Positions 1-21,548 of a stretch of DNA of 22,738 bases are shown piece after piece. The stretch is from NCBI GenBank assembly GCA_044352465.1, contig JBILDU010000042.1, forward strand, positions 1 to 22,738, given 5' to 3'. The notes below the pieces were generated by a model. The model saw only the letters and a list, made by a program, of their open reading frames with translations. It did not search any database and was not told the origin of the DNA. The position numbers and the translations under genes are program-made. Within the stretch, counting starts at the first letter, position 1. Each line of letters starts with the position of its first letter. This DNA is from Bdellovibrionota bacterium (GTDB lineage: Bacteria; Bdellovibrionota_C; UBA2361).

Positions 1-118
1 CAGTTTGGGGATTCGAACCCGCCGACTAAAAGGAGGCGGTCGCAATCCCCCCTTCTCCGCCAGTTTCTATTTAAGATTCAGTTTGGGGATTCGAACCCGC
101 CGACTAAAAGGAGGCGGT
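1..118 (+). repeat. Exact 40-bp direct repeat (1-40, 79-118; 78-bp period) flanking a tRNA-Ser-like 3' end (44-62)
   Basis: CAGTTTGGGGATTCGAACCCGCCGACTAAAAGGAGGCGGT occurs twice. The intervening sequence contains AATCCCCCCTTCTCCGCCA (T-stem 3' strand, acceptor strand, G discriminator, CCA). The repeat contains GGGGATTCGAACCC, the reverse complement of a tRNA T-arm. Confidence 0.85.
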
Positions 119-238
119 TGTCCGTCTCTCCGCACCTTATCCCTTTGAGTAAAGTTCGCTCGGGTTCTATCCGAGGGGTCTGCTCCCCCCCTGCGTGAAT
201 CGATTGACCACCCCGCCGACACCCCGTAACCTCGAGTC

Positions 239-1238: not shown

Positions 1239-2645
1239 ATGGAAAAGATACTCCTTATTGAAGACGACGATAGCCTCCGCGAGGCTGTGTCCGCGATCCT
1301 TGAACGGGATGGTTACTCCGTCGATGCTTTCCCCGACGGCGAAAGCGGGCTCACCGCATTTAACCGCACCAACTACGAATGCATCCTCTCAGACTTCAAA
1401 CTCCCTCAAATGAACGGCCTCGCCGTGCTCGAGGCGGTGCGAGAGCGAACACGGGCCGTTCCTTTTGTCATCATGACCGCATTCGGTTCGATCGACATCG
1501 CCGTGCGAGCGATGAAATTCGGCGCGAACGATTTTATCTCAAAGCCGTTTGAACCGGAGGCGCTCTCAGCAGTAGTTCGCGACGTGATCACCCATCGCCG
1601 GATCGTCCATCGCTCAGTCGGATCGGCGCTCAGGCGGGATCGGCGTTTCCTTTCGGATTCCGCTAACACCAAAGACCTCCTTCATAAGGCAAAAAAAGTA
1701 GCTCGGGTCGACACGTCGGTTCTTATCCTCGGAGAGAGCGGCACAGGAAAGGAGCTCGTGGCCCGCTTCATCCATGAGCAAGGCCCCCGGAACCTCAAGC
1801 CCTTTATCGCGGTGAATTGCGCGGCGATTCCAGCCGACCTCCTAGAGAGTGAGCTCTTTGGACACGAAGCCGGTGCCTTTACCGGAGCTACTCAAACCCG
1901 TATCGGGATCTTTGAACTCGCCGCCGAGGGCACCATCTTTTTAGATGAAATCGGTGATATGCCCCCGGCGCTCCAGGTTAAACTCCTCCGAGTCCTCCAA
2001 GAGCGCGAGGTAAAACGTGTCGGCGGTACTAAAACGATCCGTGTAAATCCCCGCATCCTCGCCGCTACAAATCACGATATCGAAAGCGCGCTCAAAAACA
2101 GGACGTTCCGCGAGGACCTCTACTTTCGCATCGCGGTCGTCACTCTGACGATCCCCCCTCTTCGGGAGCGCCCTGATGATATCGAGCTCTTGACTCGTCA
2201 CTATACCGAAAGTTTCTGTTCAGCGATCGGGCGCGCAACTATAGAGGTTGATGCCGCAGCGAAAGCCGTACTCCACAACTACCCATGGCCGGGGAACGCC
2301 CGCGAGCTCGAAAACGTCATCGAGCGAGCGGTGATTATGGCTGAGCAGAGGATCCTTCCCGAACACCTCGGGATTACTCTTTCGGCTGGAACGACACCGA
2401 TCTCCCCCGGCTCGTATTCACTTCAAGAGACCGCAAGCCGCGCGGCACGCGAAGCTGAGATTGACTTGATCGTAAAAGTTCTCGCTGAGACCGGCGGCAA
2501 TAAGACTAAAGCTGCGCAGAAACTTGGGGTAAGCTACAAAACCCTCCTCAATAAGATACGGGATTATCGGCTTGAGGAAAAAGCATCCCGTGAGCCGCTC
2601 GATCTCCGAGATCAATCTACTCCGGTCAGCGAAATCGTGAAGTAG
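1239..2645 (+). CDS. sigma54-dependent NtrC/AtoC-family response regulator (REC-AAA+-Fis HTH)
   Basis: Receiver (LLIEDD, ILSDFKLP, FISKPF); Walker [24 protein letters not shown]; Walker B FLDEIG; WPGNARELEN; HTH NKTKAAQKLGVSYKTL. Confidence 0.95.
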   Translation: MEKILLIEDDDSLREAVSAILERDGYSVDAFPDGESGLTAFNRTNYECILSDFKLPQMNGLAVLEAVRERTRAVPFVIMTAFGSIDIAVRAMKFGANDFISKPFEPEALSAVVRDVITHRRIVHRSVGSALRRDRRFLSDSANTKDLLHKAKKVARVDTSVLILGESGTGKELVARFIHEQGPRNLKPFIAVNCAAIPADLLESELFGHEAGAFTGATQTRIGIFELAAEGTIFLDEIGDMPPALQVKLLRVLQEREVKRVGGTKTIRVNPRILAATNHDIESALKNRTFREDLYFRIAVVTLTIPPLRERPDDIELLTRHYTESFCSAIGRATIEVDAAAKAVLHNYPWPGNARELENVIERAVIMAEQRILPEHLGITLSAGTTPISPGSYSLQETASRAAREAEIDLIVKVLAETGGNKTKAAQKLGVSYKTLLNKIRDYRLEEKASREPLDLRDQSTPVSEIVK

Positions 2646-5744: not shown

Positions 5745-6458
5745 CTACTCCAGCGTTAATTGATCGACCCGTTGCTTGAGAATCTCGACCCGCGCGCGGT
5801 ACCAAATAAGTAACGCTTGCAGCAGCACGAGGGAAATCATCGCGATGAACATCGTGTACTCGAAGAGAGGTTCCTTCAGACCACGATTCTCGACGACTTG
5901 AGGGTGAAGCTGCGCAACATGGGGGAGAAGCTTCACCGAATACCATACCAGCGGAACGGTCACCGCGCTCACGATACCCAGGACCGCAGCGTGTTGCGGT
6001 CTCTTGGCCGAATCACCGAACGCTCTTAAGAGATTCAACCCAAAGAAGACGAGACAAAGGAGGAGAAAAGTCACGAGGCGTGGCTCCCAACGAAACCAGG
6101 TGTTCCACGCCGAATGGCCCCATATCATCCCGGTTACCATAACGATCAAGGCAAAGAGGAACCCCACCTCACCAGCCGCATGCCCAATCGCATCGGCGAC
6201 CCGGCTACGGGTCGCGAGCACCCAGAGACTTGCCACCAGCAGCACCGCGCACGCCGCGTAACACGCCATCGCACTGCCGACATGAAAGTAGAATATCCGC
6301 TGCACCGGCCCCATGAGACGTTCATTCGGTACCACAAGAAAGGTGAGGTACGTGGCGTAGCCCACACCGCAAGCCGTTCCCAAGACCAGCAGTACCTCAG
6401 CGATACGGCTGAGAGCGTCACGACCTGAAACACGAGGGCGAAGCGGATTCGAGGACAT
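5745..6458 (-). CDS. ccmC: Cytochrome c biogenesis heme exporter CcmC
   Basis: QRIFYFHV, WWD-like WGHSAWNTWFRWEPRL, QLHP. Start set at ATG 6458 (MSSNPL) because the ORF-track extension overlaps ccmB. Confidence 0.92.
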   Translation of the reverse strand: MSSNPLRPRVSGRDALSRIAEVLLVLGTACGVGYATYLTFLVVPNERLMGPVQRIFYFHVGSAMACYAACAVLLVASLWVLATRSRVADAIGHAAGEVGFLFALIVMVTGMIWGHSAWNTWFRWEPRLVTFLLLCLVFFGLNLLRAFGDSAKRPQHAAVLGIVSAVTVPLVWYSVKLLPHVAQLHPQVVENRGLKEPLFEYTMFIAMISLVLLQALLIWYRARVEILKQRVDQLTLE

Positions 6459-6481
6459 CGGGGCAGAATCTCTGAGATAAA

Positions 6482-7159
6482 TCAGTCGCGCACGACGTAC
6501 GCGATGAGGTTTAAACCGAGCACAAAGTACAATACATCGAGTCCGACAAGCAACGACAACCACGGCGAGCTCACGGGCAATCCTCCTCCCGTGACCACTC
6601 CCATCGAGAGCTCTATCGCAGCAAAAAAGAGGGGGAAGGAAAGGGGAAAGAGGAGCACAGGAAGAAGGATACCTTTCAATCGAGAGGTGCTTGAGACCGC
6701 ACCTAAGAGGGTGGTGAGCGCGGCAAAACCGCCCACCACAAGCACCGACACGACAAGAAATTCGGGGAACTGCGCGAATAGCGGAACATCGAGGAGGATG
6801 CCGAGTGCCACGAGATTCAACAGCTGCCCGATCCCCATAATGAGAGCGCTCACGAGCCACTTCGAAACGAAGATGAGAGCAGGTGAGCGACCCGCCAAGA
6901 GGATTCCCTCGATAGCCATGTGCTCGAGCTCGGGTTCATACATTCGAGTTGCCGCCGTCGTGGCTGAAAAAAGAAAAGAGATCCACACGAGTGCAGGAAA
7001 GAGGCGGGTGATAACATCGCCACCAACAAACGCACTGTTAACTCCGAGCGCCGCAACTACCGCGATCACGAGCGCCAGGAATAGGTTTACCCCCAACGTT
7101 TCCTTTGTACGAAGCTCGATCCTCAAATCTTTTAACAGCAGTGCGCCAACCCCCCTCAT
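6482..7159 (-). CDS. ccmB: Heme exporter membrane protein CcmB
   Basis: LLLKDLRIELR start, six TM helices, LLPVLLFPL motif; lies between ccmA and ccmC. Confidence 0.92.
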   Translation of the reverse strand: MRGVGALLLKDLRIELRTKETLGVNLFLALVIAVVAALGVNSAFVGGDVITRLFPALVWISFLFSATTAATRMYEPELEHMAIEGILLAGRSPALIFVSKWLVSALIMGIGQLLNLVALGILLDVPLFAQFPEFLVVSVLVVGGFAALTTLLGAVSSTSRLKGILLPVLLFPLSFPLFFAAIELSMGVVTGGGLPVSSPWLSLLVGLDVLYFVLGLNLIAYVVRD

Positions 7160-7863
7160 CGGTTCACCTCCCGATAGAACGCGATGACATCATCCCCAGA
7201 GCTCGTCGCCGAATCAGCAGCGATCGTGCCTCCCTTGAGCACGATGACGCGATCAACTTTTCCTCTCACTCGGGCGATGTCGTGGCTCGCGATAACCACA
7301 CCACCACCACGCTCTCCGGCGAGGCAAGCGGCGATTTCGTTGAACAAGATATCGACCGACCGGTCATCAAAAGAGGCGGTGGGCTCATCGAGAAAAAGGT
7401 AGCGGGGTCTGGCTACCAGCGCTCGACACACCGACAAGCGAAACTGCTGCCCCCGCGAAAGCTCGGGAAGCATCTTCTTTCGAACCTCTCCCAGCCCCCA
7501 CCGTTCGAGCGAATGAGCGACATCGGCGGTCCCTCTCCCCACAAGTCTCGTCGCAAAATCCAAGTTCTCCTCGACGGTGAGGTAGCGATAGAGCATCAGT
7601 TGGTGCCCGACGTAGCCAAACGGCTCACCCCCGGGGATTCCACTCATCCCACCCACATCGGGGGGGGTGAGCCCCGCCAAGATACGCAACAGAGTTGATT
7701 TTCCCGCTCCGTTTGGACCGAGGAGAAGGAGCTTTTGAGATGGCGGAACGGTAAGATCGATCCCCTTGAGCACAGCGGTTTTTCCGAAGCTCTTACGGAC
7801 GCCCCGGAGTTCGATTCCCGCGCTCACTGGACTAACGGGATTCAAGCCCATCGATTCGCTCAA
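7156..7863 (-). CDS. ccmA: Heme ABC exporter ATP-binding protein CcmA
   Basis: GPNGAGKSTL, YVGH..LY..LTVEENL, signature LSRGQ, YLFLDEP; 4-nt overlap with ccmB. Alternative start ATG 7851. Confidence 0.88.
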   Translation of the reverse strand: MSESMGLNPVSPVSAGIELRGVRKSFGKTAVLKGIDLTVPPSQKLLLLGPNGAGKSTLLRILAGLTPPDVGGMSGIPGGEPFGYVGHQLMLYRYLTVEENLDFATRLVGRGTADVAHSLERWGLGEVRKKMLPELSRGQQFRLSVCRALVARPRYLFLDEPTASFDDRSVDILFNEIAACLAGERGGGVVIASHDIARVRGKVDRVIVLKGGTIAADSATSSGDDVIAFYREVNR

Positions 7864-8119
7864 GAATAGTCGCCAGCTCGATACTCAACCGATTTTTGGT
7901 TTGCTCGTAGTCGGCGACCGAGATCTTTCCCGTCGTAAAATCGAGCTCTAAGTCGCGGAGGACCTGAATACACCGCGCTTTTTGATCGGCGAGCGTTGTC
8001 GCAAGTTCCTCACCATCAACTAAACCCGACGTACCGTCATCGAGCACCAGGTACGGACGCACGAGAAACCAAGCGACAAAGGCAGCCAGAAGGATACTCG
8101 CCAGAAGCGCGACACTCAT
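7832..8119 (-). CDS. Small CcmI-N-like membrane protein
   Basis: N-terminal TM ending LVRP, followed by LRDLELDFTTGKISVADYE, which resembles the CcmI N-terminal segment; overlaps the ccmF stop. Confidence 0.7.
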   Translation of the reverse strand: MSVALLASILLAAFVAWFLVRPYLVLDDGTSGLVDGEELATTLADQKARCIQVLRDLELDFTTGKISVADYEQTKNRLSIELATILERIDGLESR

Positions 8120-10119
8120 GAGACCACCTCCTCAGATACGCCGCGCGCACGTGCGATGGCGGGAACCTCACGGGCCTGCGGAATCGCCACGACGACCGTT
8201 CCGACGATCATCACAATCGCCCCAACCCAGAGCCACAATTGTAAAGGATTAATGAAGACCTTGAAGGCCGCCCGCTTACCCGAATCGTCGAGCCCTGCGA
8301 GCACGAGATAGAGGTCTCCCCGCACCGAATGATAGAGCGCCACCTCGGTCGTGTTCTCTTTATTGCGCGGATAGAAGCGCATCTCCGGCTGAAGAACCTT
8401 CACCACCGCATTATCGCTCACCGTCTTCACCGACACCTCAGCCGTGAGGGCCTGATAGTTCTTGCGGGGGATATCCCGTAACGCGTCGAGCGAGAGCTCA
8501 AATCGCCCGATCTTATACGACTCGCCCTGCGCAAGGGAGAAATCCTTCTCAACCTTGTGGGCCATCGAAGCAGTGATGGCGATCGTGACGATCACCACAC
8601 CGAAGTGAACCAGATGCCCACCGTAACGCACCCGATGCCGCCGCACGAGCGTTTGAACACCGCTCACTACCGAGTCCTCAGTGCGCCCAACCTGCTGCGC
8701 TCGGTAGCCACGGTGCAGCTCTCCCATAATGGTGAGGACAACAAAAAAGGAGAGGGCATAGGCGAGCGTTGGCCAAAAGCCAAAAACGCCCGCCCAAAGC
8801 ATTAAAACACCGAGAAAAAAGGCGCTCAGAAACGGGAGTAAGAAAGTTTTCCGCAAACTCCCCAACGAAGCCCGGCGCCATGCGATAAGCGGTCCTACCC
8901 CCATCATGAAGATAAGGCCCATGAAGAGCGGAACGTTCACCGCATTGAAAAACGGGACCCCCACTGCCAGCTTTTTACCGGTGACCGCCTCGGAGAGCAC
9001 CGGAAACATGACGCCCCACAGCGTCGCGAAACAGATGCTGAGGAAGATAAGGTTATTGAGAAGAAAAGCCGCCTCGCGGGAAAAGAGGCTCTCGATCTTT
9101 CGATCTGACGCAAGTTCACGGCGACGATAAAAACTGAGCGCTGCGGCAACAACGGTGATAATTCCGATATACACCAAGAAGATCCAACCGATATCGGTTG
9201 AGGCGAACGCGTGCACACTTTGGACGACCCCGGAGCGGGTGAGGAACGTTCCAAAGACAGTCAGTCCGTACGTCAATACGATGAGCCAGATGTTCCAGAA
9301 CTTGAGCATGTTTTTGCGCTCTTGCACCATCACCGAGTGCAGGAACGCCGTGCCGGTGAGCCACGGCAAGAATGAGGCGTTCTCCACCGGATCCCACGCC
9401 CAAAACCCACCCCAGCCGAGCTCGATGTATGCCCAATAGCCTCCGAGGACGATCCCGGCGGTCAAAAATCCCCACGAGACGAGCGTCCACCGCCGGGTAA
9501 GCCGAATCCACTCGTTCGAGAGATGGCCGGCGAGGAGTGCACCGATGCAAAACGCAAACGGAATACTGAAGGTCGTAAACCCGGCATACAAAGTCGGCGG
9601 ATGGATCGCCATGAACGGGTTCTGGAGCAGGGGATTGAGCCCGTTCCCATCAGGAGGAATAAACGGGGCTTTGATGTATCGAAACGGATTAGTAAAAAAA
9701 ACCACCACCGTGAGGAAGAAGAGGGAGGAGGAATTCACCACCGCGAGCACCCACGGCATCAGCGCCCGGGGATAGGTATGGCTTCGCGCCGCCACGATCG
9801 CGCCACACAGGGTAAGGAAGAACGCCCAGAGCAGCATCGATCCATCCATCCCGCCCCACAAGGCTGAGATCTTGTATACCGCCGGCATGTCGCGGTTTGA
9901 ATGCTCCCAAATGTACTGATTCGAAAAATCGGAGATGTAGAAACCGTAGCACAGCGCGAGTGTCGCAAGCCCCGCACAAACTCCGACAAGAACGGTTGCG
10001 TTGACAACTGCAGCCGACCAACTGCGTTTCCCCGTCTTCCCGCCATAGAGACCGGCGAGTACCCCGAAAAGGGCGACGAGCCACGAAGCACACAAAGCGA
10101 AATGTCCGAACTGCGCCAT
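8116..10119 (-). CDS. ccmF: Cytochrome c heme lyase CcmF
   Basis: WGGMDGSMLLW, GLNPLLQNPFMAIHPP, WWD motif ELGWGGFWAWDPVENAS, TAFLHS, TRSGVVQSVHAFA; GGAG RBS. Confidence 0.97.
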   Translation of the reverse strand: MAQFGHFALCASWLVALFGVLAGLYGGKTGKRSWSAAVVNATVLVGVCAGLATLALCYGFYISDFSNQYIWEHSNRDMPAVYKISALWGGMDGSMLLWAFFLTLCGAIVAARSHTYPRALMPWVLAVVNSSSLFFLTVVVFFTNPFRYIKAPFIPPDGNGLNPLLQNPFMAIHPPTLYAGFTTFSIPFAFCIGALLAGHLSNEWIRLTRRWTLVSWGFLTAGIVLGGYWAYIELGWGGFWAWDPVENASFLPWLTGTAFLHSVMVQERKNMLKFWNIWLIVLTYGLTVFGTFLTRSGVVQSVHAFASTDIGWIFLVYIGIITVVAAALSFYRRRELASDRKIESLFSREAAFLLNNLIFLSICFATLWGVMFPVLSEAVTGKKLAVGVPFFNAVNVPLFMGLIFMMGVGPLIAWRRASLGSLRKTFLLPFLSAFFLGVLMLWAGVFGFWPTLAYALSFFVVLTIMGELHRGYRAQQVGRTEDSVVSGVQTLVRRHRVRYGGHLVHFGVVIVTIAITASMAHKVEKDFSLAQGESYKIGRFELSLDALRDIPRKNYQALTAEVSVKTVSDNAVVKVLQPEMRFYPRNKENTTEVALYHSVRGDLYLVLAGLDDSGKRAAFKVFINPLQLWLWVGAIVMIVGTVVVAIPQAREVPAIARARGVSEEVVS

Positions 10120-10137
10120 ACGGTTTCTCCTAAGCTC

Positions 10138-10599
10138 TTAAAGTCCCGCGCGGGGGGCCTGGTCTGGGGTCGGCATCGCACCGGAGTATTTGTCGGTTGG
10201 CTTTGGCGCCTCGTATTTCGAGGGGCACTGGGTAAGAAGCTTCGTCGCTTCCAGCACTCCACCAGAGAAATTACCATCCATGATGACGTCTCGACCGGGA
10301 GCGAACATATCGGGCTTCACCCCGCGATACACCACGGGGAGGCCCCCTACGCCGAGCTCTTTCGTTCCCGGATCGAGCACGGTGAATTTGAGCTCAAAGG
10401 CGGGCTGGACCGCATAGTCGATCGGATCAGACGAAACCCGTCCGGCGACCCGAATGCGCGAAACCACACTGCCTTCCGGCTCAGCTGCCAACGCCGACGG
10501 GAGGAGCACGTCAGAGGTGCCAACCCGCGAAGCCTGAAAAACAAGTAACCCTCCAACAACGAAGGCCACAAAGAGGAGGCTAAAGAAAACTCGATTCAT
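10138..10599 (-). CDS. ccmE: Heme chaperone CcmE, CxxxY (System I*) variant
   Basis: N-terminal TM, IRVAGRV, VVYRGVKPDMFAPGRDV, LLTQCPSKY. Start could instead be ATG 10620. Confidence 0.92.
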   Translation of the reverse strand: MNRVFFSLLFVAFVVGGLLVFQASRVGTSDVLLPSALAAEPEGSVVSRIRVAGRVSSDPIDYAVQPAFELKFTVLDPGTKELGVGGLPVVYRGVKPDMFAPGRDVIMDGNFSGGVLEATKLLTQCPSKYEAPKPTDKYSGAMPTPDQAPRAGL

Positions 10600-10727
10600 G
10601 ATCGGTGCGTCAATTGACATGAGGTAACGACGCAAACGGTGAATTCGTCATACGGGCCCACCGACTACGCCGACGGAAAACGCAAGGAGTATAGACAGAT
10701 GAGCCGATGAGTACAACGGCGGGGGGG

Positions 10728-12239: not shown

Positions 12240-13343
12240 TCAAATTTCAAGTTCGGTATCTTGCAATGCGGTTCCAAATCGCTCCACCAAATACACTTTG
12301 AGCTTTTCACGAATACGATTCTCGAGTTGTCGTACCCGCTCTCGGCTGAGCGAAAGCTTTTCCGCGATATCTTGGAGGGTTGCTTTCTCCTCACCCAACA
12401 TTCGCTCGCGAAATATTATCGCCTCCTTCTCATTCAAAGTAGAGCCAAAGTCGTCGATCGCCTTCAAAACCAAGCCGCGAAGCTCCTTCTGCGCAAGCAG
12501 CTCCTCCGCCGAGAGCTCGCTCGAGGGAAGAACGGAGAGAAGCGTTCCTTCACCATCATCTTGAAACGGTGCATCGACACTCACATCTGCGCCGCTGAGC
12601 CGCTGCTCCATCTCAACGACTTCGCTCTCCTTCACGTTGAGCTTCTCCGCGAGGAGCTTCGGCCCCGGATAAAACCCCTCGCGCTCGAGCCGCTCCTTCT
12701 CCTTCTTCAGGTTAAAAAACAGCTTGCGCTGGGCTTGCGTTGTACCCAACTTCACCAACCGCCAATTGGCGATAACATAGCGAATAATATAGGCTTTAAC
12801 CCACCATACGGCATAGGAGGGGAAGCGTACGTTGCGATACGGATCGAAATTCTTCACCGCTTCCAGGAGGCCAACGTTACCCTCCTGGATAAGGTCGAGA
12901 AGGTTACGGGCAGCACGCTCATAATCTCGCGCCAATTTGACGACGAGCCATAAATTGCTCGATACCAACTTGTAAGCCGCTTCAAGATCTTTCTTCTCGA
13001 AGTAGCGAACAGCGAGCTCCCGCTCCTCCTCTCGGCTCAGCGCTGGGTAGCGGGCTATTTCGCGAAGATAGGCCGAAAGGGCATCGTAACGAACCAAGCC
13101 CCGATCAGCGCTCGACTCGGCCTCTTGATCCTCGGCGAGCTCAGGAAGGCCCTCCTCCGTATCGGCGAAGTCCGCCGGCAGGACTTCGAGGCCCGGCTCA
13201 ACCTCGGTGGGCTCGCTTGAACCTACGTGGGATGCGCCAATCGGATCCTCACTGCTTCCGATAAGCTCCCCTTCAAGCACCTCGGGCTCTTGAGAGGAAG
13301 AGTCTATGGCCGTAGTATTATTGTCTTTTTTTTCTTTACCCAC
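12240..13343 (-). CDS. rpoH: RNA polymerase sigma-32 factor
   Basis: Region 2 DLIQEGNVGLLEAVKNFDP, YAVWWVKAYI; RpoH box LVKLGTTQAQRKLFFNL; region 4 SLSRERVRQLE; GTG start. Confidence 0.9.
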   Translation of the reverse strand: MGKEKKDNNTTAIDSSSQEPEVLEGELIGSSEDPIGASHVGSSEPTEVEPGLEVLPADFADTEEGLPELAEDQEAESSADRGLVRYDALSAYLREIARYPALSREEERELAVRYFEKKDLEAAYKLVSSNLWLVVKLARDYERAARNLLDLIQEGNVGLLEAVKNFDPYRNVRFPSYAVWWVKAYIIRYVIANWRLVKLGTTQAQRKLFFNLKKEKERLEREGFYPGPKLLAEKLNVKESEVVEMEQRLSGADVSVDAPFQDDGEGTLLSVLPSSELSAEELLAQKELRGLVLKAIDDFGSTLNEKEAIIFRERMLGEEKATLQDIAEKLSLSRERVRQLENRIREKLKVYLVERFGTALQDTELEI

Positions 13344-13546
13344 CCCTCTACGCTATCAAGAAGGATTCAATCGAATCAAGCTCGTAGCTCACCCCTTCCA
13401 CGAACACCACCGTCGAGCCCGTCTGAGATTGATTTTAAGTTTAACCCCCCAACTGTCGAATATTGTCAGTGGATACAGTCAATTTTTGGCACCCCCGAGC
13501 GGCTTTGCGAGCCGACTCAGGGTGTTATGATTTTTTGGGCGCCGCC

Positions 13547-15241
13547 ATGTCCGCCAACGTAGGCGAGCTCCTCGTGCACGCGGGGAAGATATCGCCGGAG
13601 CAACTTCAGGTCGGACTCGAAGCCCAGCGGGCCAATGGTGGGAGTCTCGGCGCTCAACTTGTTAAGCTGGGGCTCATCGGCGAAACCGCGGTTGCGGAAG
13701 TCTTGAGTTCGCAGTTTGGTGTCCCGGTCATCGAGCTATCGAACTATTCGCTCGACGAGGGGGCCTTAGCTCTCATTCCACAAAATCTCGCGGTCAAACA
13801 CAACGTCCTCCCCATCGTAAAGTCCGACACGACCCTCACCGTTGCAATGGTAGACCCATCGAATCTGGTGGCGCTCAACGACATTAAATTTATCACCGGC
13901 CTTGATATCCGCGTGGTGCTCGCTACCGAGAGCGACATGAAGCACACCCAAGAGCGGGTCTTCGAAAGCGCGGTTTCATACGACGCTATCATCGGGGACC
14001 TCGACACAAGCGATGTTGAGGTAATCGATGCCGATGAGCAGCTCGACATTCGAGAGCTCGAGCGGGCTACGGAAGACGCTCCGGTGGTCAAACTCGTCAA
14101 TGCCATCCTCACCGACGCGATAAAAAAAGGGGCCTCCGATATTCATATCGAACCGTACGAGAAGCACTTCAGGGTTCGGTTTAGAATCGACGGCGTTCTC
14201 TACGAAATCATGCGACCACCTGCTCGTCTCAAAAACGCGATCACCTCGCGGGCGAAGATTATGGCGAACCTTGATATCGCCGAGCGACGACTGCCCCAGG
14301 ACGGACGCATTAAACTCAAACTCGCGAACAACCGTGAGATGGACTTTCGCGTCAACGTTCTCCCGACCCTCTTTGGCGAGAAAGTCGTCATGCGACTCCT
14401 CGACAAATCAAATCTTCAGCTCGACATGATGAAACTTGGGTTCGAGAGCGGGCAGCTCACCGATTTCAAAAACGCGATCTCAAAACCACACGGCATGGTT
14501 CTCGTCACGGGACCGACCGGCTCGGGCAAAACAACGACGCTCTACTCCGCGCTCGCCGAGCTCAACAAAGTCACCACAAACATCAGCACCGCGGAAGATC
14601 CTGTCGAATTTAATCTGGCGGGGATCAACCAAGCCCAGATGCACAGCGAAATCGGCTTCACCTTCGCCGCTGCTCTCCGCGCTTTTTTGCGCCAAGACCC
14701 CGACGTCATCATGGTCGGCGAAATACGCGATCTCGAAACGGCCGAGATCGCGATCAAAGCCTCGCTTACCGGGCATCTGGTGCTCTCGACTCTCCATACG
14801 AACGATGCCCCTTCGACGATAAATCGCCTACTTAACATGGGTGTCGAGCCTTTTCTCGTCGCCTCCTCAGTCAACGCGATCGTCGCGCAGCGCCTCGCCC
14901 GCCGAGTGTGTGCTCATTGCGCCCATCCCATCGACATCGATACCGACGTCCTTATCGGAATCGGGTTCTCACCAACCGAAGCGGGTATGGTGAAAGCACG
15001 CAGCGGCACCGGCTGTGAAAAATGCTCCGGAACCGGATACAAGGGCCGGATCGCACTCTACGAGATCATGCCGCTCCACGAGCCGCTGCGCGAGTGCGTC
15101 CTCAATGGTGCCACCGCGAGCGAGCTAAAGCGTGAAGCGATCAAGCACGGCATGCTCACGTTGCGAGCATCTGGGCTTATGCGGCTGCGTGAGGGGACAA
15201 CAACGGTCGAAGAAGTGTTGCGCGTCACGGCGGCGGATTAA
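13547..15241 (+). CDS. pilB: Type IVa pilus assembly ATPase PilB
   Basis: MshEN-like N-terminus, ASDIHIEP, AERRLPQDGR, Walker A GPTGSGKTT, RQDPD..VGEIRD, TLHTND, CxxC..CxxC. Start set at ATG 13547. Confidence 0.95.
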   Translation: MSANVGELLVHAGKISPEQLQVGLEAQRANGGSLGAQLVKLGLIGETAVAEVLSSQFGVPVIELSNYSLDEGALALIPQNLAVKHNVLPIVKSDTTLTVAMVDPSNLVALNDIKFITGLDIRVVLATESDMKHTQERVFESAVSYDAIIGDLDTSDVEVIDADEQLDIRELERATEDAPVVKLVNAILTDAIKKGASDIHIEPYEKHFRVRFRIDGVLYEIMRPPARLKNAITSRAKIMANLDIAERRLPQDGRIKLKLANNREMDFRVNVLPTLFGEKVVMRLLDKSNLQLDMMKLGFESGQLTDFKNAISKPHGMVLVTGPTGSGKTTTLYSALAELNKVTTNISTAEDPVEFNLAGINQAQMHSEIGFTFAAALRAFLRQDPDVIMVGEIRDLETAEIAIKASLTGHLVLSTLHTNDAPSTINRLLNMGVEPFLVASSVNAIVAQRLARRVCAHCAHPIDIDTDVLIGIGFSPTEAGMVKARSGTGCEKCSGTGYKGRIALYEIMPLHEPLRECVLNGATASELKREAIKHGMLTLRASGLMRLREGTTTVEEVLRVTAAD

Positions 15242-15350
15242 CCGGTGTACCGCCACATCGACCGGCAACCGCGATCGTTTTCGTCCGAATACATTTCGCT
15301 CGACCGAGCCGACGGTTGCGGTCATGCGATAACGTTTTAAGAGGGTGACT

Positions 15351-16571
15351 ATGCCGGTGTATCTGTGGGAGGGGACCAGTGCCGCCGGGAAGCGGATCTC
15401 CGGCGAGCTTGAGGGCCGCGACATCCAAGCTGTGTTTAACGCTCTCAAAGCCCAACGCATCGTCCCCGTTGCTCATCGAATCCGCCCGAAGGGCAAGGGG
15501 CTCGATATGGAGATCAAGCTCCCTGGGTTTGGGCCGAAAGTTCGACAGCGTGACGTGGTCATCTTTACCCGTCAATTCGCTACCATGATCGAAGCTGGAC
15601 TCCCGATCACTCAGGCGCTGGACATCTTGGCCCGCCAATCACCGAATCCAGCGTTCCAAAAAGCTCTCAACGGAGTGAAAGATACCGTCGAATCGGGCGG
15701 CACCCTCTCAGAAGGACTCGCCAAATCGCCGAAAGCTTTCGATGACCTCTACGTTAACATGATCACCGCCGGCGAAAACGGAGGTATTCTCGACGTCATT
15801 CTGGAGCGCCTCTCCATACACATGGAGAAAGCGATGAAACTGAAGCGGGAGGTCAAGACGGCGATGATCTACCCCGCAGTTGTTATCTCCGCCGCTGGGA
15901 TCGTCACTACTATCCTCCTCGTCTTTGTTATCCCCACCTTCAAAGATCTTTTTAATGACTTCGGTTCGGCACTACCACTCCCCACCCAGCTCGTGCTTGA
16001 TCTCTCTGACTTCTTCGTGTCGAATTTCTTTCTCATTTTCGGCTCACTCATCGCGCTGACGATCTCGAGCATTCGCTTCATTCGCACGCCACGGGGTAAG
16101 GAAGTCGTCCACCCGCTTCTCCTGAACCTCCCGGTTTTCGGAGACATCATCCGCAAAGTTGCGGTGGCTCGATTCACTCGCACCCTGGGCACCATGATCA
16201 GCTCGGGCGTGCCTATCCTTGACGCACTCAATATCTGCGCCAAAACAGCTGGGAACACGGTCGTCGAGCGGGATGTGCAACGCGCTCGCGTGAGTATCTC
16301 AGAGGGCAAGACGATGGCCGAGCCACTCGGCGCGTCAGCGGTCTTTCCACCGATGGTCGTCCAGATGATCGGGGTCGGGGAGTCGACCGGTGCCCTAGAT
16401 GCAATGTTGCAGAAGGTCGCTGACTTCTACGAAGACGAGGTTGATAACGCCGTAGGTGCAATGAAGCAAATGATCGAGCCTATCATGATTTTGGTGCTCG
16501 GCACGATCATCGGCGCTCTCGTTATCGCGATGTATCTGCCGATATTTAAAATGGGTTCGGTGGTTCAATGA
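15351..16571 (+). CDS. pilC: Type IV pilus inner-membrane platform protein PilC (T2SS F family)
   Basis: [63 protein letters not shown] before ATG 15351. Confidence 0.95.
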
Positions 16572-18637
16572 GCAGGACACTCTCCGCCTGGAAGAGTTGG
16601 TTAAGCGTAGCCACGCCGCGACCCCCGCTTGACCACCCTCAAGCCTTCAGTGCGCACTGGCTTACCCGCTTCCGCATCTTCATCGCACTCAGTGCGCTCG
16701 TTATCATCCACTTTGCGAGCACGCTTCTGTTCGCTCCTGTCGCGGGGGTCGATCGTGAGGCCTGGCTACTGAGCTTCGGTGTCTACCTGCTCTTTATAGC
16801 CGTGCCCCACTTTCGCCTCCCGTACGAGCTGCGGCGGATAGCGACACTTGGTGCATACCTGATCGACCTATGTGCAATCACCGGATTGGTCTACTTGACC
16901 GGCGGCCCATTCTCTCCCTTTCTGTTTCTATTTCTTCCCGTCGTGGGATTCGTTGCTGCGACCGAGTCACGGCGAGCGGGGCTCTGGTGCTCCGCGATCG
17001 GAATAGGTTTGTACAGCCTCCTAGCGGGTGCCTTACAGGTCGGCGCGCTCGCTCTGGTGGATGGGACGGTGCTCCACGCGGGGCCACCCGGCGGACTCCT
17101 TCTCCAGATCATCGGACTCGGTTCGGGCATGATACTTACCGTTATCGGGGCAAGTTTTCTCGCGCTCCGCATGACCGCACAGTCGGTGATTGCGGCTTCG
17201 TCGACCGCTCTCGCCGTCGAACAACGGGAGCTTCTCGAACAGATCCCCGATGGCATCATCCGACTCCGCCTCGATGGAACGATTGAGTACCTCAACGAGG
17301 CAGCCGCAACGCTTCTGGGCGCAACGAGCGACCGCCTCCGCGGACGATCACTCCGTGACTATCTCATTGCCCACGGTGCAGATACGCTTATCGAGCTGTT
17401 GCCCAGCGAGAGTCTTTGCACAACCGATCTCACGATCACCGCTCCCAATTCGAACGAGACCCGTCACTTCAGCTGCATCGCTCGACCGTGCTACAACCGG
17501 CGCCACGAGCTCGTTGGTGCGTTCATTATCTTACGGGACATGACTACCCTGCGAACTGCTCAGGAGCAGCTCGAGATTCAAGAGCGCATGGCTCGCCTTC
17601 TGGCGACGACCGATGCGGATGAAAGCTTCCAACGGCACTCGACGCGCGTGAAAGGGTTTGTTGGTGAGAGCGCCGTCATGCAACGTATCTTTACGTTGAT
17701 TGAGCGAGTAGCGAAATTCGATGCAACGGTTCTCATCAGCGGGGAATCGGGCACCGGGAAGGAGCTCGTCGCCCGGGCGATTCACCTCGGCAGCGCCTAT
17801 GCGAGCGGTCCCTTCGTCGCGGTGAACTGCGGCGCAATTCCGGAAGCGCTCCTTGAGAGCGAGCTCTTTGGGCATAAACGAGGGGCGTTTACGGGTGCTG
17901 AGAGCGAGGCGCTCGGTCTTTTTCGGCGCGCCGATGGCGGCACCATTTTTCTTGATGAGATCGGCGAGCTCCCTTTATCGATGCAGGCCAAGCTCCTGCG
18001 CGTGGTTCAAGAGAAACAGGTGCGACCAGTTGGCGGAGATAGCGATATCCCGATTCGGGTGCGGGTGATCGCGGCGACTAATCGCAACCTTCGGGCCGAA
18101 GTGCGCGCTGCACGATTTCGTGAAGATCTCTTCTATCGGCTCAACGTCGTGAGTATCGCGCTCCCCCCGCTCCGGGATCGACGAGAAGATATCCCCCCGC
18201 TTGTGGATTCGCTTTTGCGCCAGCTGTGCCGCGGCAAGGCGGCGCTCCCGGTGGTACCTCCAGCAACCATGCAAGCGCTGATGGGATACAATTACCCCGG
18301 GAACGTCCGCGAACTTGAGAATGTCCTTGAGCGCGCGCTTGTCTTCGGAGGAGAGGTCATCCTTCCCGAACACCTCGCTGAACAGGTGCGGGGTTTGGGC
18401 ACTGCGTCGGTGGAAGAGCCTCCCCCTCAACGCGAAACGGAAATCATTTTCGCGAACGAGATTCAATTTCCCCTCGACCTCGACGCTATCCTCGCGGATA
18501 CCGAGCGACGCTACCTCGAACTTGCACTCGTCCAAACAAACGGGGCCAAGAAGAAGGCGGCGGATCTTCTTGGTCTCAATTTCCGCTCCTTCCGATACCG
18601 ACTTCAAAAATTCAATATCGCGAGCGAAGGCGATTAG
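16568..18637 (+). CDS. PilS(TM+PAS)-PilR(AAA+/HTH) fusion: membrane-bound one-component sigma54 activator
   Basis: PilS-type TM motif [22 protein letters not shown] ([23 protein letters not shown]); then [35 protein letters not shown]; PilR-type [19 protein letters not shown] overlap with pilC. Confidence 0.9.
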
Positions 18638-18742: not shown

Positions 18743-18759
18743 GTAACAAAAAGTGTCAC
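18743..18759 (+). promoter_or_regulatory. Candidate activator (PilR-type) upstream binding site
   Basis: Imperfect palindrome GTAACA-AAAAG-TGTCAC containing GTGTC, about 105-120 bp upstream of the -24 element. Confidence 0.5.
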
Positions 18760-18862: not shown

Positions 18863-18878
18863 TGGCATCCGACTTGCT
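18863..18878 (+). promoter_or_regulatory. sigma54 (-24/-12) promoter of pilA
   Basis: TGGCATCCGACTTGCT, GG-N10-GC; expected upstream of pilA in PilR-controlled loci. Confidence 0.85.
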
Positions 18879-19039: not shown

Positions 19040-19420
19040 ATGAAGAAGGCTGAAGCGGGATTTACGTTGATCGAACTCCTCGTTGTGGTAGCGATCATCG
19101 GTATCTTAGCTGCGATAGCGATTCCCCAGTTCAACTCTTACCGTCAACGGGGCTACGACTCCGCTGCGCGCTCTGACCTTAGAAACGCGGCAGTGGCTCA
19201 AGAGGCATATTTCGTTCAGAGTAACGAGTATCGTAACTGTACGGACGGCGAGTGTTTGGAGGGCGGTTCCGCGGCTCTCCCAGGTCTGCGCTCGCTCTCA
19301 AACGGCGTAACCCTCTCGATGACGGCGACGACGACCGGGTTCACAGCGACCTCGTCGAACTCGCTCGGCTCCGGGGCAGTTTACACCTGGAACAGCGCGA
19401 ACGGTGGAATGCAGCCGTAA
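19040..19420 (+). CDS. pilA: Type IVa major pilin
   Basis: Class III signal [29 protein letters not shown]; strong AAGGAG RBS; own sigma54 promoter and terminator. Confidence 0.93.
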
Positions 19421-19553: not shown

Positions 19554-21548
19554 ATGGAACGATCAGCCCCACATGTCGGTCGACTTGGCTTGGGGCTCCT
19601 GATCGCCACCTGGTTTTTCGCCACATTATTTACCCCAAGCACGGTGCTTTGGCGCGACTCCGGAGAGTTCATTCTCGCGGGTTTCTTTCTCGATATCGTT
19701 CATCCCCCCGGCTATCCACTCTATGCTCAACTGGCCAATCCGTTCGCCCTTCTTCCAGTCGGTCCGATCGCTTGGCGGGCTCACCTCTTTTCAGGTGCCC
19801 TCGGAGCTCTTTTTCTCTTTAGCCTTACCCTTACCACCGCCCGAATTCTCTCTTTTTTAGGGCTTCATCGATTCACCACTGCCGTCTCCGTTCTTCCAGC
19901 GTTTCTCCTCCTCATGAGCCCTGCGTTTCTCCGCGGACTTCTGTCCGCCGAAGCATACCTGCTCCATGCGGTCCTCATGCTCGCCTTGCTCAATCTCTAT
20001 TGCGTGTACCTGCAAACCACCGATTTACGGCTCTTGATTCTCGCGGGTTTCATCGCTGGCCTCTCACTTGGAAACCACGTCTCGGGCGTTCTTACCTTCA
20101 TTCCGGTGACGATCCTCGTCCTCATCGACATCCGTCGCACTGCGCGGGCGATCCTCCCCGCATTTCTCGCGGCGGTACTCGGGCTCGGAGTGTACGGCTA
20201 CCTCCCGGCACGATCCTTCGCTTCTCCCCCGCTTAATACCGGCGCCCCCCACTCAGTCGAGCGATTTGTCGCCCACATCACGAACGCGCGGGACAGACTC
20301 CTACGCCCCTCGATTCAAGCCATCCCCGGAACAAACATCCCCCGAGAGTCGTGGGACGACCGCCTCTTTCACGCAGCAACTCACGATCTCCGCACCCTCA
20401 GCGGTGAGCTCTCTATCGTCATATTGCTCAGCGCTGGAATAGGAGTTCTTTTTGTCCTTCGTATGCAGCCCCTCTTCGGTGGCATTATTCTCTCTGTCTT
20501 CGGAGGGAATATGTTGTTTTTCTCCGGTTGGGATCCTGACCCGTGGATCATCTCCCTTGCCCTCCTGGCTGTTCTCGCCTCCGTAGCGCTGGCGGCGTTA
20601 CTGCTGAGCAGCCACCGCCCCCTCGTTCGCCTCGTGGTGGCCGGCAGCCTCATCGCGGGAGTCGCACTCACCACACAGAGCCCCACGGTCATCTTGAAGG
20701 CAGCCTCGGTAAGAGGATTCTCTGCTGCCCCGGACGCTGCCCGCTCACTCGTCGACTCACTTCCACACGGTGCCCCGATTATCACCGAAGCCTCGTGGTT
20801 CATCGCACAGTACCTCCACACGATCGAAGGATATCGTGAGGATGTTGTCCCGATCTATCAACCGAGCCTACTGTTCCCTCATCTTTTCGCCCCACTCGAG
20901 ATCAATATTCTCGCTGAGCACCTCTCGTTCACTCCCCATGCGGAGCTCCCTCCCAACGCCCCGGATGAGCAGCAACTCCGAAATTTCATTACAGCCGTCA
21001 GTCGAAGCGGGCCGGTTTTTTTTGAACCAAACCTCGAATTGAACGGCCGTTTTCGGGCCATCGCTCGACTGTCCTCGGAGGGAACAACCCGACTTGAACG
21101 CGATCGATCAAGCGCCCGCGAACAGGGTTACGTTGAGCAGACTTCTCGTTACCTGACTGAATTGCGGGCGGCAGCCGTCAGCGATCCCCTTTTTTTCGGC
21201 ACCGATACGCAGCAGTATCTCGAAACTATCCTCACAAATGCGGCGGATCTTCTCCGCGTCACCGGATATCCGGTCGACGCCCTCACCCTCATCGAACGGG
21301 TGTGCTCAACGGCAACTCCGCGCTGTTCGGCTACGATCGAAGCTAATCGCGCGCTCTACCTCCTCGACACCGAACGGATCCACGAGGCTATCGACGTTAT
21401 TCTTGAGGCCGCGCTTCGGGAGCCGCAGGCGATCCGACGCTTACTCCCTAATCTTCAGCTCGCCCTCTCCCAAATTTCGCCTGAGGAGATCGAGCAACTG
21501 CAACGACATCCCCCCTACAAGACGATAATCGAACAGGCCGGCTTTTAG
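19554..21548 (+). CDS. DUF2723/TMEM260-like GT-C membrane glycosyltransferase
   Basis: WRDSGEF..LDIVHPPGYPLY, SAEAY.L, GLSLGNH, YLPARS..PPLN.G, YLHTIEGYREDV; multiple TMs and a helical (TPR-like) C-terminus. Confidence 0.85.
   Translation: MERSAPHVGRLGLGLLIATWFFATLFTPSTVLWRDSGEFILAGFFLDIVHPPGYPLYAQLANPFALLPVGPIAWRAHLFSGALGALFLFSLTLTTARILSFLGLHRFTTAVSVLPAFLLLMSPAFLRGLLSAEAYLLHAVLMLALLNLYCVYLQTTDLRLLILAGFIAGLSLGNHVSGVLTFIPVTILVLIDIRRTARAILPAFLAAVLGLGVYGYLPARSFASPPLNTGAPHSVERFVAHITNARDRLLRPSIQAIPGTNIPRESWDDRLFHAATHDLRTLSGELSIVILLSAGIGVLFVLRMQPLFGGIILSVFGGNMLFFSGWDPDPWIISLALLAVLASVALAALLLSSHRPLVRLVVAGSLIAGVALTTQSPTVILKAASVRGFSAAPDAARSLVDSLPHGAPIITEASWFIAQYLHTIEGYREDVVPIYQPSLLFPHLFAPLEINILAEHLSFTPHAELPPNAPDEQQLRNFITAVSRSGPVFFEPNLELNGRFRAIARLSSEGTTRLERDRSSAREQGYVEQTSRYLTELRAAAVSDPLFFGTDTQQYLETILTNAADLLRVTGYPVDALTLIERVCSTATPRCSATIEANRALYLLDTERIHEAIDVILEAALREPQAIRRLLPNLQLALSQISPEEIEQLQRHPPYKTIIEQAGF

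Follow-up and report, generated by a model that had tools for sequence, protein, structure and literature searches.

The fused gene between pilC and pilA

In this study, we analysed 22,738 nucleotides of a Bdellovibrionota bacterium (contig JBILDU010000042.1 of assembly GCA_044352465.1, hereafter the window), in which a single open reading frame (ORF) of 689 aa occupies the pilS-pilR slot between pilC and pilA. It encodes a putative fusion of the membrane sensor of a PilS-type kinase with the sigma54-activating output of a PilR-type regulator. Its ATG overlaps the stop codon of pilC as ATGA, and a gap of 400 bp separates it from pilA. A sequence-only reading of the window had proposed one 689-aa ORF at this position, which is confirmed by the ORF itself, by Pfam and by synteny. 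The gene and the parts of its product are as follows.

16568-18637, plus strand: PilS-PilR fusion gene, membrane-anchored sigma54 enhancer-binding protein, 689 aa, ORF uninterrupted
16652-17167, plus strand: six-helix transmembrane (TM) domain of PilS type (aa ~29-200), from hydropathy, AlphaFold2, Pfam in 12/12 family members and an alignment with 13 PilS kinases
17225-17554, plus strand: PAS domain (aa 220-329), PAS_4 4.5e-12, PAS 9.8e-11, collinear with the PAS domain of PilS
17543-17605, plus strand: post-PAS helix (aa 326-346), from AlphaFold2, homologous to the helix leading into the PilS H-box
17600-17656, plus strand: junction linker (aa 345-363), variable in sequence and predicted to be disordered
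17660-18394, plus strand: sigma54-interaction AAA+ domain and lid (aa 365-609), Sigma54_activat 1.1e-70, AAA_lid_14 1.8e-18
18491-18613, plus strand: Fis-type helix-turn-helix (HTH), PilR-like (aa 642-682), HTH_8 1.5e-10, invariant in 12/12 members

Hydropathy analysis revealed six hydrophobic segments in the N-terminal part of the protein, and an AlphaFold2 monomer of modest quality (mean pLDDT 63.7, pTM 0.32) placed TM helices at aa 29-54, 60-81, 86-111, 117-132, 135-158 and 174-224, the sixth of which continues unbroken into a PAS domain placed at aa 229-324. The TM domain carries R36 together with the motif D100..T105..Y109.TGG.FSPF. In Pfam, the window protein matches 6TM_PilS (PF25323) at aa 35-149 with an E value of 0.003 and 17.7 bits, the cut-off being 27 bits, and all 12 aligned family members match the same model at E <= 0.01 (best 6.2e-14). 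The assignment of the domain to the PilS type holds at family level and is sub-threshold for the window protein alone, for which it is suggested by the family members together with pairwise alignments. Among the Pfam domains that the sequence-only reading had anticipated, PAS, Sigma54_activat and HTH_8 were therefore recovered as such, but the PilS-like TM match only below threshold.

Following the PAS domain, residues A342, L344 and L345 of the post-PAS helix are invariant in the 12-member alignment, and pLDDT falls below 50 over aa 341-368, the region of the linker. Pfam delimits Sigma54_activat (PF00158) at aa 365-530 and AAA_lid_14 at aa 536-609, with Walker A GESGTGKE at 392-399, GAFTGA at 439-444 and Walker B DE at 463-464, and FRSFRYRL at aa 672-679 lies within the HTH. 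All the motifs quoted beforehand for this protein, that is the TM motif, the coiled coil (337-345), GESGTGKE, GAFTGA and FRSFRYRL, are present. HisKA, HATPase_c and Response_reg, which had been described as missing, indeed gave no Pfam match in the fused protein at E <= 1; as a control, Pfam detected the receiver domain (REC) in the other sigma54 activator of the window (1239-2645). NCBIfam returned matches to many named activators, all sub-threshold, and the best of them, PrdR over aa 217-682 (PAS, AAA+ and HTH), lies far below its cut-off.

The fused protein is equipped with all the parts of a sigma54 activator and, with the TM domain assigned at family level, of a PilS sensor, and it lacks those of a phosphorelay altogether. 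Because kinase and receiver domains are absent, it falls outside the two-component systems, and the presence of TM segments and a DNA-binding HTH_8 domain in one polypeptide is the layout of a one-component membrane regulator. It has the parts of a sigma54 enhancer-binding protein (AAA+ domain, GAFTGA loop, HTH and a target promoter), and ATP-dependent activation is what these parts predict.

Homology to split PilS and PilR

The window protein is collinear with Nitrospira PilS (aa 30-344 with PilS 47-363, 24% identity, E 1e-10), and its remaining part aligns with the adjacent Nitrospira PilR (aa 364-689 with PilR 142-459, 46% identity, E 3e-89), i.e. after the REC of PilR. In another PilS kinase, P0138, similarity ends at residue 332, and Pfam places the beginning of HisKA at 334 (BLASTP E 2e-13). 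On these alignments, the protein retains PilS up to the helix before the phospho-accepting His and resumes at the first residues of the PilR AAA+ domain, with 19 variable residues between. The proposal that pilS and pilR have collapsed into one gene with a PilS-related N-terminus is thus borne out: the PilS alignments at 1e-10 and 2e-13 are collinear, PilS and PilR parts are joined over about 19 aa, and the phosphotransfer domains are gone. As to its origin, a single in-frame deletion across the boundary of adjacent pilS and pilR genes would yield such a fusion. It would have removed HisKA, HATPase and the receiver domain and joined the PilS sensor (six TM helices, PAS and signalling helix) via a short flexible linker to the AAA+ and HTH domains of PilR.

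A scan of other phyla with AAA+/HTH patterns returned mostly ordinary REC-type regulators. Four seemingly full-length fusions, from Nitrospira, Ca. Manganitrophaceae, Methylomirabilota and Acidobacteriota, were rejected, each being an adjacent pair of split pilS and pilR. In these phyla the equivalent slot, after pilB-pilT-pilC, holds a split pilS whose product of 558-602 aa has an H-box, followed by a receiver-type PilR of 459-479 aa, so that the placement of the fusion gene in the pilS-pilR slot is upheld from this side as well. None of 70 enhancer-binding proteins encoded at loci of other phyla had three or more N-terminal TM segments. Split pilS and pilR genes 3' of pilC are also described for B. 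bacteriovorus in PMC4237445.

Occurrence, conservation and history

The source genome is a metagenome-assembled genome (MAG) of 170 contigs that is 94.9% complete, and the sequence-only reading had asked for the junction at 17570-17660 to be checked for misassembly. In contigs of four independent lake-water DNA runs, the junction was bridged without indels in three: by a contig of run X7 covering 17315-18476, which is identical to the window, by one of run X9 covering 16568-18197 with 34 substitutions, and by one of run X11 covering 17161-17694 with four substitutions; run X8 has a gap at the junction. A look for RNA runs containing the stretch returned none, a result that bears on expression in neither direction. 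Among 40 relatives, many have the same single frame. In a sample of 124 genomes at phylum level, 65 match at E <= 1e-95; one open frame of 662-789 aa is found in 51 genomes across many families, a shorter form of 522-619 aa in nine, and five are partial or ambiguous. In five genomes of the lineage that lack the fusion (G012, G030, G011, G005 and G017), an N-terminal profile gave only generic PAS matches and a RegB-like kinase. The search for full-length homologues near pilA that had been suggested did find single-ORF homologues, directly 3' of pilC in 12/12 loci first examined and after pilC in 9/9 further loci of sufficient length, and a type IVa pilin gene was detected downstream of the fusion in 11 of 22 loci scanned.

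Across 12 aligned members (45-67% identity), Walker A, the GAFTGA-type loop, Walker B, the HTH and the TM motif D..T...Y.TGG..SPFLF are invariant or nearly so; GESGTGKE and DE463-464 are invariant in 12/12, as are G439, F441, T442 and A444 of the loop. We read this conservation as a sign that the protein is under selection. A profile of the whole protein matched at least 120 clusters (90% identity), and the best 120 were all full-length fused proteins, of which 92 have both PF25323 and PF00158 among their precomputed domains. Few clusters bear a name, which is either "sigma 54-interacting transcriptional regulator", for MAGs assigned to Oligoflexia, Bdellovibrionales, Bdellovibrionota, SAR324 or Dadabacteria, or "two-component system response regulator PilR", given by JGI, and no cultured organism occurs among the named rows of these 120. 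The top 150 matches of the N-terminal profile were dominated by multi-PAS proteins, and only the 29 single-stretch matches were used, comprising 26 fused proteins, two PilS kinases and one fragment. A word-based search with aa 1-345 gave 11 matches.

In all seven short forms examined (516-594 aa; loci L095-L101, from genomes G003, G002, G015, G023, G009, G013 and G059), a multi-helix N-terminus is joined directly to the AAA+ domain and no PAS exceeds the threshold, and some of these variants have about 25 aa or less from membrane to AAA+ domain. Their genes occupy the slot after pilC wherever the contig extends. The existence of these PAS-less variants implies that the PAS domain is dispensable. 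One short-form homologue (G013, contig C3, 173979-175100) has an in-frame TAG within the match, which may reflect a pseudogene or a sequencing error; apart from it, the 65 matches contain no frameshift or stop.

A FastTree phylogeny of the AAA+-HTH part was built from 115 rows, comprising 44 fused proteins, 70 activators of other phyla, 19 of which adjoin a kinase with 4-6 TM segments, and the NtrC-like paralogue of the window as outgroup; three fused sequences that did not match the Walker A pattern used were dropped, database rows were picked by their N-terminus, and REC-type PilRs from close relatives were not among the rows. All 44 fused forms make up one clade (support 89, not starred), separate from the clade of receiver-type PilRs with PilS neighbours, and the PAS-less forms are scattered inside it, with strongly supported branches forcing at least three changes. 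This topology agrees with a fusion that arose once and then lost its PAS domain repeatedly.

Promoter and candidate enhancer of pilA

Two putative regulatory sites lie in the gap between the fusion gene and pilA.

18863-18878, plus strand: sigma54 (-24/-12) promoter TGGCATCCGACTTGCT for pilA, 1 mismatch to the searched consensus, conserved in related loci
18745-18757, plus strand: AACAAAAAGTGTC, half-palindrome and candidate enhancer, one mismatch to GACA-N5-TGTC, at a distance of 118 bp upstream of the promoter

The window contains eight sigma54 matches in total, which is not above chance (shuffle mean 6.8), and the site at 18863 is the only one of them with fewer than two mismatches. As the count in the window is at chance level, the weight of this promoter comes from its conservation, since a TGGCAYCCGAMTTGCT-type -24/-12 element lies upstream of pilA in 10/10 loci, PAS-less and class-level members included. 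The exact 13-bp palindrome GACA-N5-TGTC was found 74-181 bp upstream of the promoter in 6/10 loci, and composition-matched shuffles gave a mean of 0.41 loci with 0/1000 reaching six, a test that is biased because the motif was defined after the sequences were seen. A longer form, GACAAA-N-TTTGTC, occurs upstream of pilA in loci L003, L004, L006, L012, L097 and L102, likewise at 74-181 bp from the sigma54 promoter and with up to three copies per locus, and is a candidate binding site of the fused activator. PilR of P. aeruginosa binds TGTC-containing repeats.

A full-length rpoN is present in 5/5 fusion-bearing relatives tested. In the genome of the window itself, TIGR02395 is matched only along the N-terminal 64 positions of the model, where contig C152 ends (50-238, minus strand), and PF04552 and PF04963 gave no match in this genome. 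We take this to be an rpoN gene truncated by a contig break rather than a genome without rpoN.

The sensor domain

In an alignment of 12 fused proteins with 13 PilS kinases, the column of R36, at the start of TM1, holds Arg in 13/13 kinases and 11/12 fused proteins, and the motif TGG..SPF is common to the fused proteins and to non-gammaproteobacterial PilS. PilS of P. aeruginosa is the pilin-sensing precedent from which an input can be proposed by analogy. According to PMC6528607, citing Kilmury and Burrows 2016, Arg24 of PilS and Glu5 and Pro22 of PilA matter for the PilS-PilA interaction or pilin sensing. The PilA encoded in the window has both E5 and P22, and by alignment R36 of the fused protein would be the counterpart of R24 of P. 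aeruginosa. A complex prediction for the TM domain (aa 25-215) and PilA scored 0.00 in both runs, controls not having been run, and speaks neither for nor against an interaction.

The only other 6TM_PilS-type match in the same genome belongs to a RegB/RegA-like pair on contig C26 of G000 (L092 119-1917, minus strand; also L110), in which a RegB-like kinase of 427 aa, with a 6TM domain of 30.2 bits, is partnered by a 172-aa REC-Fis regulator. Since this kinase passes the Pfam cut-off, PF25323 is not specific to PilS, and since the pair is the only other match, no separate PilS was found in the genome by this domain.

Neighbouring genes

The fusion gene is the third of a pilB-pilC-fusion row, and the genes around it are as follows.

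12240-13343, minus strand: sigma70-family gene, upstream of pilB
13463-15241, plus strand: pilB, type IV pilus assembly ATPase, first gene of the row, Pfam T2SSE 2.1e-144, MshEN
15345-16571, plus strand: pilC, type IV pilus platform protein, Pfam T2SSF 1.1e-69
19040-19420, plus strand: pilA, type IVa major pilin (leader MKKAEAG; mature F1..E5..P22), N_methyl 3.6e-09 and alignment
19554-21548, plus strand: TMEM260-like (GT-C type) glycosyltransferase with C-terminal TPR, 664 aa, directly after pilA

There is no pilT in the pilB-pilC interval of the window (13463-16571); a pilT-like gene is found there in the relatives L096 and L103, and likewise in the split-system loci L021, L029 and L047. The TMEM260-like protein is a candidate pilin O-glycosyltransferase, and an ORF with a similar N-terminus also lies 3' of pilA in locus L002 of the same genus. 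The pilus genes are preceded by a cluster for cytochrome c maturation of the System I type (5745-10635, minus strand), which comprises CcmF (8116-10119), CcmE (10138-10635), CcmB, an ABC ATPase and a CcmC-like protein and looks ordinary. The sigma54 activator at 1239-2645 (plus strand) is an NtrC-like paralogue with the classical REC-AAA+-HTH organisation, and it is preceded at 1175-1190 by a sigma54-like site, TGGCATCGCTTTTGCC, with two mismatches; the match is no better than chance, and the site may serve autoregulation.

Proposed mechanism and alternative explanations

We propose that the fused protein is a working one-component, phosphorylation-independent, membrane-bound activator of pilA, and we put the probability of this reading at about 0.6. 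The protein would stay in the inner membrane and bind enhancer sites of the TGTC type that lie some 75-180 bp ahead of the sigma54 promoter of pilA, and, sensor permitting, its AAA+ domains would assemble into an active ring, leading to promoter opening. Phosphotransfer would be replaced by conformational coupling along the path from TM6 through the PAS domain to the post-PAS helix. The input is probably the amount of pilin in the membrane, by analogy with PilS of P. aeruginosa, resulting in feedback control of pilA. We infer the activation of pilA, the action while membrane-bound and the sensed input from genes and predicted structures, and on the same grounds the TM domain may read pilin, the signalling may be allosteric and the pilA locus may be held at the membrane. 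Such tethering, by coupled transcription, translation and insertion, is speculation and is conceivable because three genes for membrane proteins, pilC, the fusion gene and pilA, lie together within a short stretch.

The alternative that fares best keeps the membrane-bound activator and changes only its input, with the PAS domain or the TM bundle sensing a ligand, redox, membrane state or surface contact. The PAS domain is present in most members, and the 6TM_PilS model also matches the RegB-like kinase, so that the TM fold is not specific to pilin sensing. On the other hand, the PAS domain has been lost repeatedly with the TM domain retained, the Arg at the start of TM1 is common to PilS kinases and the gene stays beside pilA, and we regard a non-pilin input as unlikely.

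Release by cleavage is a common control of membrane-tethered transcription factors, and the TM domain might only park an inactive activator until cleavage in the linker or in a TM segment frees a soluble AAA+-HTH fragment that activates pilA. The linker (aa 345-363) that precedes the AAA+ domain is disordered and little conserved, which would suit this, and a hexamer pinned to the membrane is sterically awkward, most of all in the short variants with almost no spacer. However, the TM3/TM4 motif, R36, the continuous TM6-PAS helix and the post-PAS helix are conserved as in signalling kinases, and for this reason conformational signalling fits better than a passive anchor. In addition, regulators of the ToxR and CadC type act while membrane-bound, as described in PMC10269533 and PMC10629549, and no protease gene or cleavage motif was noticed in passing, no dedicated search having been made. 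Sequestration with proteolytic release therefore seems to us slightly less credible still than a non-pilin input.

A decaying, functionless pilS-pilR remnant has been proposed in the case of gonococcal Rsp; PMC6528607 regards this N. gonorrhoeae fusion as a remnant that plays no part in the transcription of pilE. For the present family this is very improbable, as 51 of 124 genomes, from many families, have an intact gene, all catalytic motifs are invariant, the sigma54 promoter of pilA is kept in 10/10 loci with rpoN intact in 5/5 relatives, and the 65 matches show no frameshift or stop save the one TAG in G013. Although the source is a 170-contig MAG, an assembly artefact or a strain-specific deletion joining two genes can practically be dismissed, because contigs of three of the four runs bridge the junction without indels and the same ORF recurs in dozens of genomes.

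Several points weigh against a pilin-reading activator that works from the membrane. The 6TM_PilS score of the window protein itself lies below the Pfam cut-off (17.7 vs 27 bits), identity to PilS is low (24-26%), and the equation of R36 with R24 is drawn from PilS of P. fluvialis, not of PAO1, with Gln in one of the 12 fused members. At E <= 1e-95, 59 of the 124 genomes have no match; the key branch of the tree is not strongly supported, and the REC-type PilRs of close relatives are missing from it. The enhancer motif was defined post hoc, and its exact form is absent from the window and three other loci. PAS-less variants (7/7 examined) mean that the coupling path is not uniform. Finally, there is a steric problem, in that a ring tethered by 36 TM helices must reach the sigma54-RNA polymerase, and it is sharpest in the variants whose ATPase is separated from the membrane by no more than about 25 aa.

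A bolder version of the proposal, which we offer tentatively and hold to be somewhat doubtful, is that these proteins are the first natural family of polytopic-membrane sigma54 activators, in which the PilS-PilR phosphorelay would have been replaced lineage-wide by conformational coupling and the pilin load of the inner membrane would gate an AAA+ ring that remodels the sigma54-RNA polymerase at the membrane surface. If this were true, transcription and translation of pilA and insertion of its product would all take place at a single site on the membrane, and the repeated loss of PAS would imply that the TM bundle suffices to gate the ATPase.

The accepted picture of a sigma54 activator is that of a soluble protein which reaches the polymerase by DNA looping, and subunits locked in the membrane by six helices each raise the question of whether the ring can assemble there and whether it can reach the sigma54-RNA polymerase. 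The family thus offers a natural test of whether this activator class can work from the membrane. It is also a natural conversion of a two-component into a one-component system, with a known breakpoint immediately ahead of the H-box on the PilS side and immediately behind the receiver on the PilR side, which shows what parts of PilS carry the signal, and with no balance of kinase and phosphatase it is a simpler system for testing whether TM domains of the PilS type read pilin. Applied to the fused proteins, database names such as "two-component response regulator PilR" are incorrect.

Comparison with known systems

The closest system is PilS-PilR of P. aeruginosa and others, with which the fusion shares the slot between pilC and pilA, a homologous 6TM and PAS sensor, a homologous AAA+ and HTH output, a sigma54 promoter at pilA and the Arg at the start of TM1. 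Unlike PilS-PilR, it is one polypeptide without phosphotransfer domains, and the activator itself is an integral membrane protein. Sigma54 activators with PAS and without REC, such as PrdR, TyrR, DhaR and PrpR, likewise have a PAS domain directly before AAA+ and are controlled without phosphorylation, but they are soluble, whereas the PAS domain of the fused protein derives from PilS and hangs from a 6TM domain. As for ring assembly, FtsH is an AAA+ hexamer that assembles with each subunit TM-anchored. This is an analogy only, for FtsH is a protease with two TM helices per subunit, and homology is claimed no further than the AAA+ fold.

The transmembrane regulators ToxR, CadC, TcpP, TfoS and VtrA, as surveyed in PMC10269533, also combine a sensor and a DNA-binding domain in one membrane protein, and it follows from this one-component logic that the target DNA must come to the membrane. 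Most of these have a single TM pass and a sigma70-type (OmpR-like or similar) DNA-binding domain by which RNA polymerase is recruited, whereas the fused protein is six-pass and has as its output an AAA+ ring that is driven by ATP and acts on sigma54. A term search of the survey did not find 'sigma' or HTH_8.

N. gonorrhoeae has a published fusion, Rsp, in which Nps and Npa, its homologues of PilS and PilR, are joined (PMC6528607; PMC10269533). It is regarded as a remnant without a role in pilE transcription in the first of these papers, whereas the second takes it as a hint that two-component systems may give rise to membrane regulators. Compared by description only, Rsp resembles the present proteins in that fusion of adjacent genes has combined an N-terminus of PilS type with a C-terminus of PilR type. 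It is, however, the relic of one species, whereas the family described here is lineage-wide and lies beside a sigma54-driven pilA in genomes with intact rpoN; the gonococcal rpoN is defective.

The sequence-only reading knew of no description of this architecture, which held in part: Rsp is a published fusion of PilS/PilR type (PMC6528607; PMC10269533), and the domain annotation in public databases already displays the combination. Our literature search, which lay mostly outside the subscription journals, gave no account besides Rsp of a conserved, apparently working family of membrane-anchored sigma54 activators. The idea of such a fusion is therefore not wholly new, and what appears to be new is a conserved and apparently working family of fused proteins.

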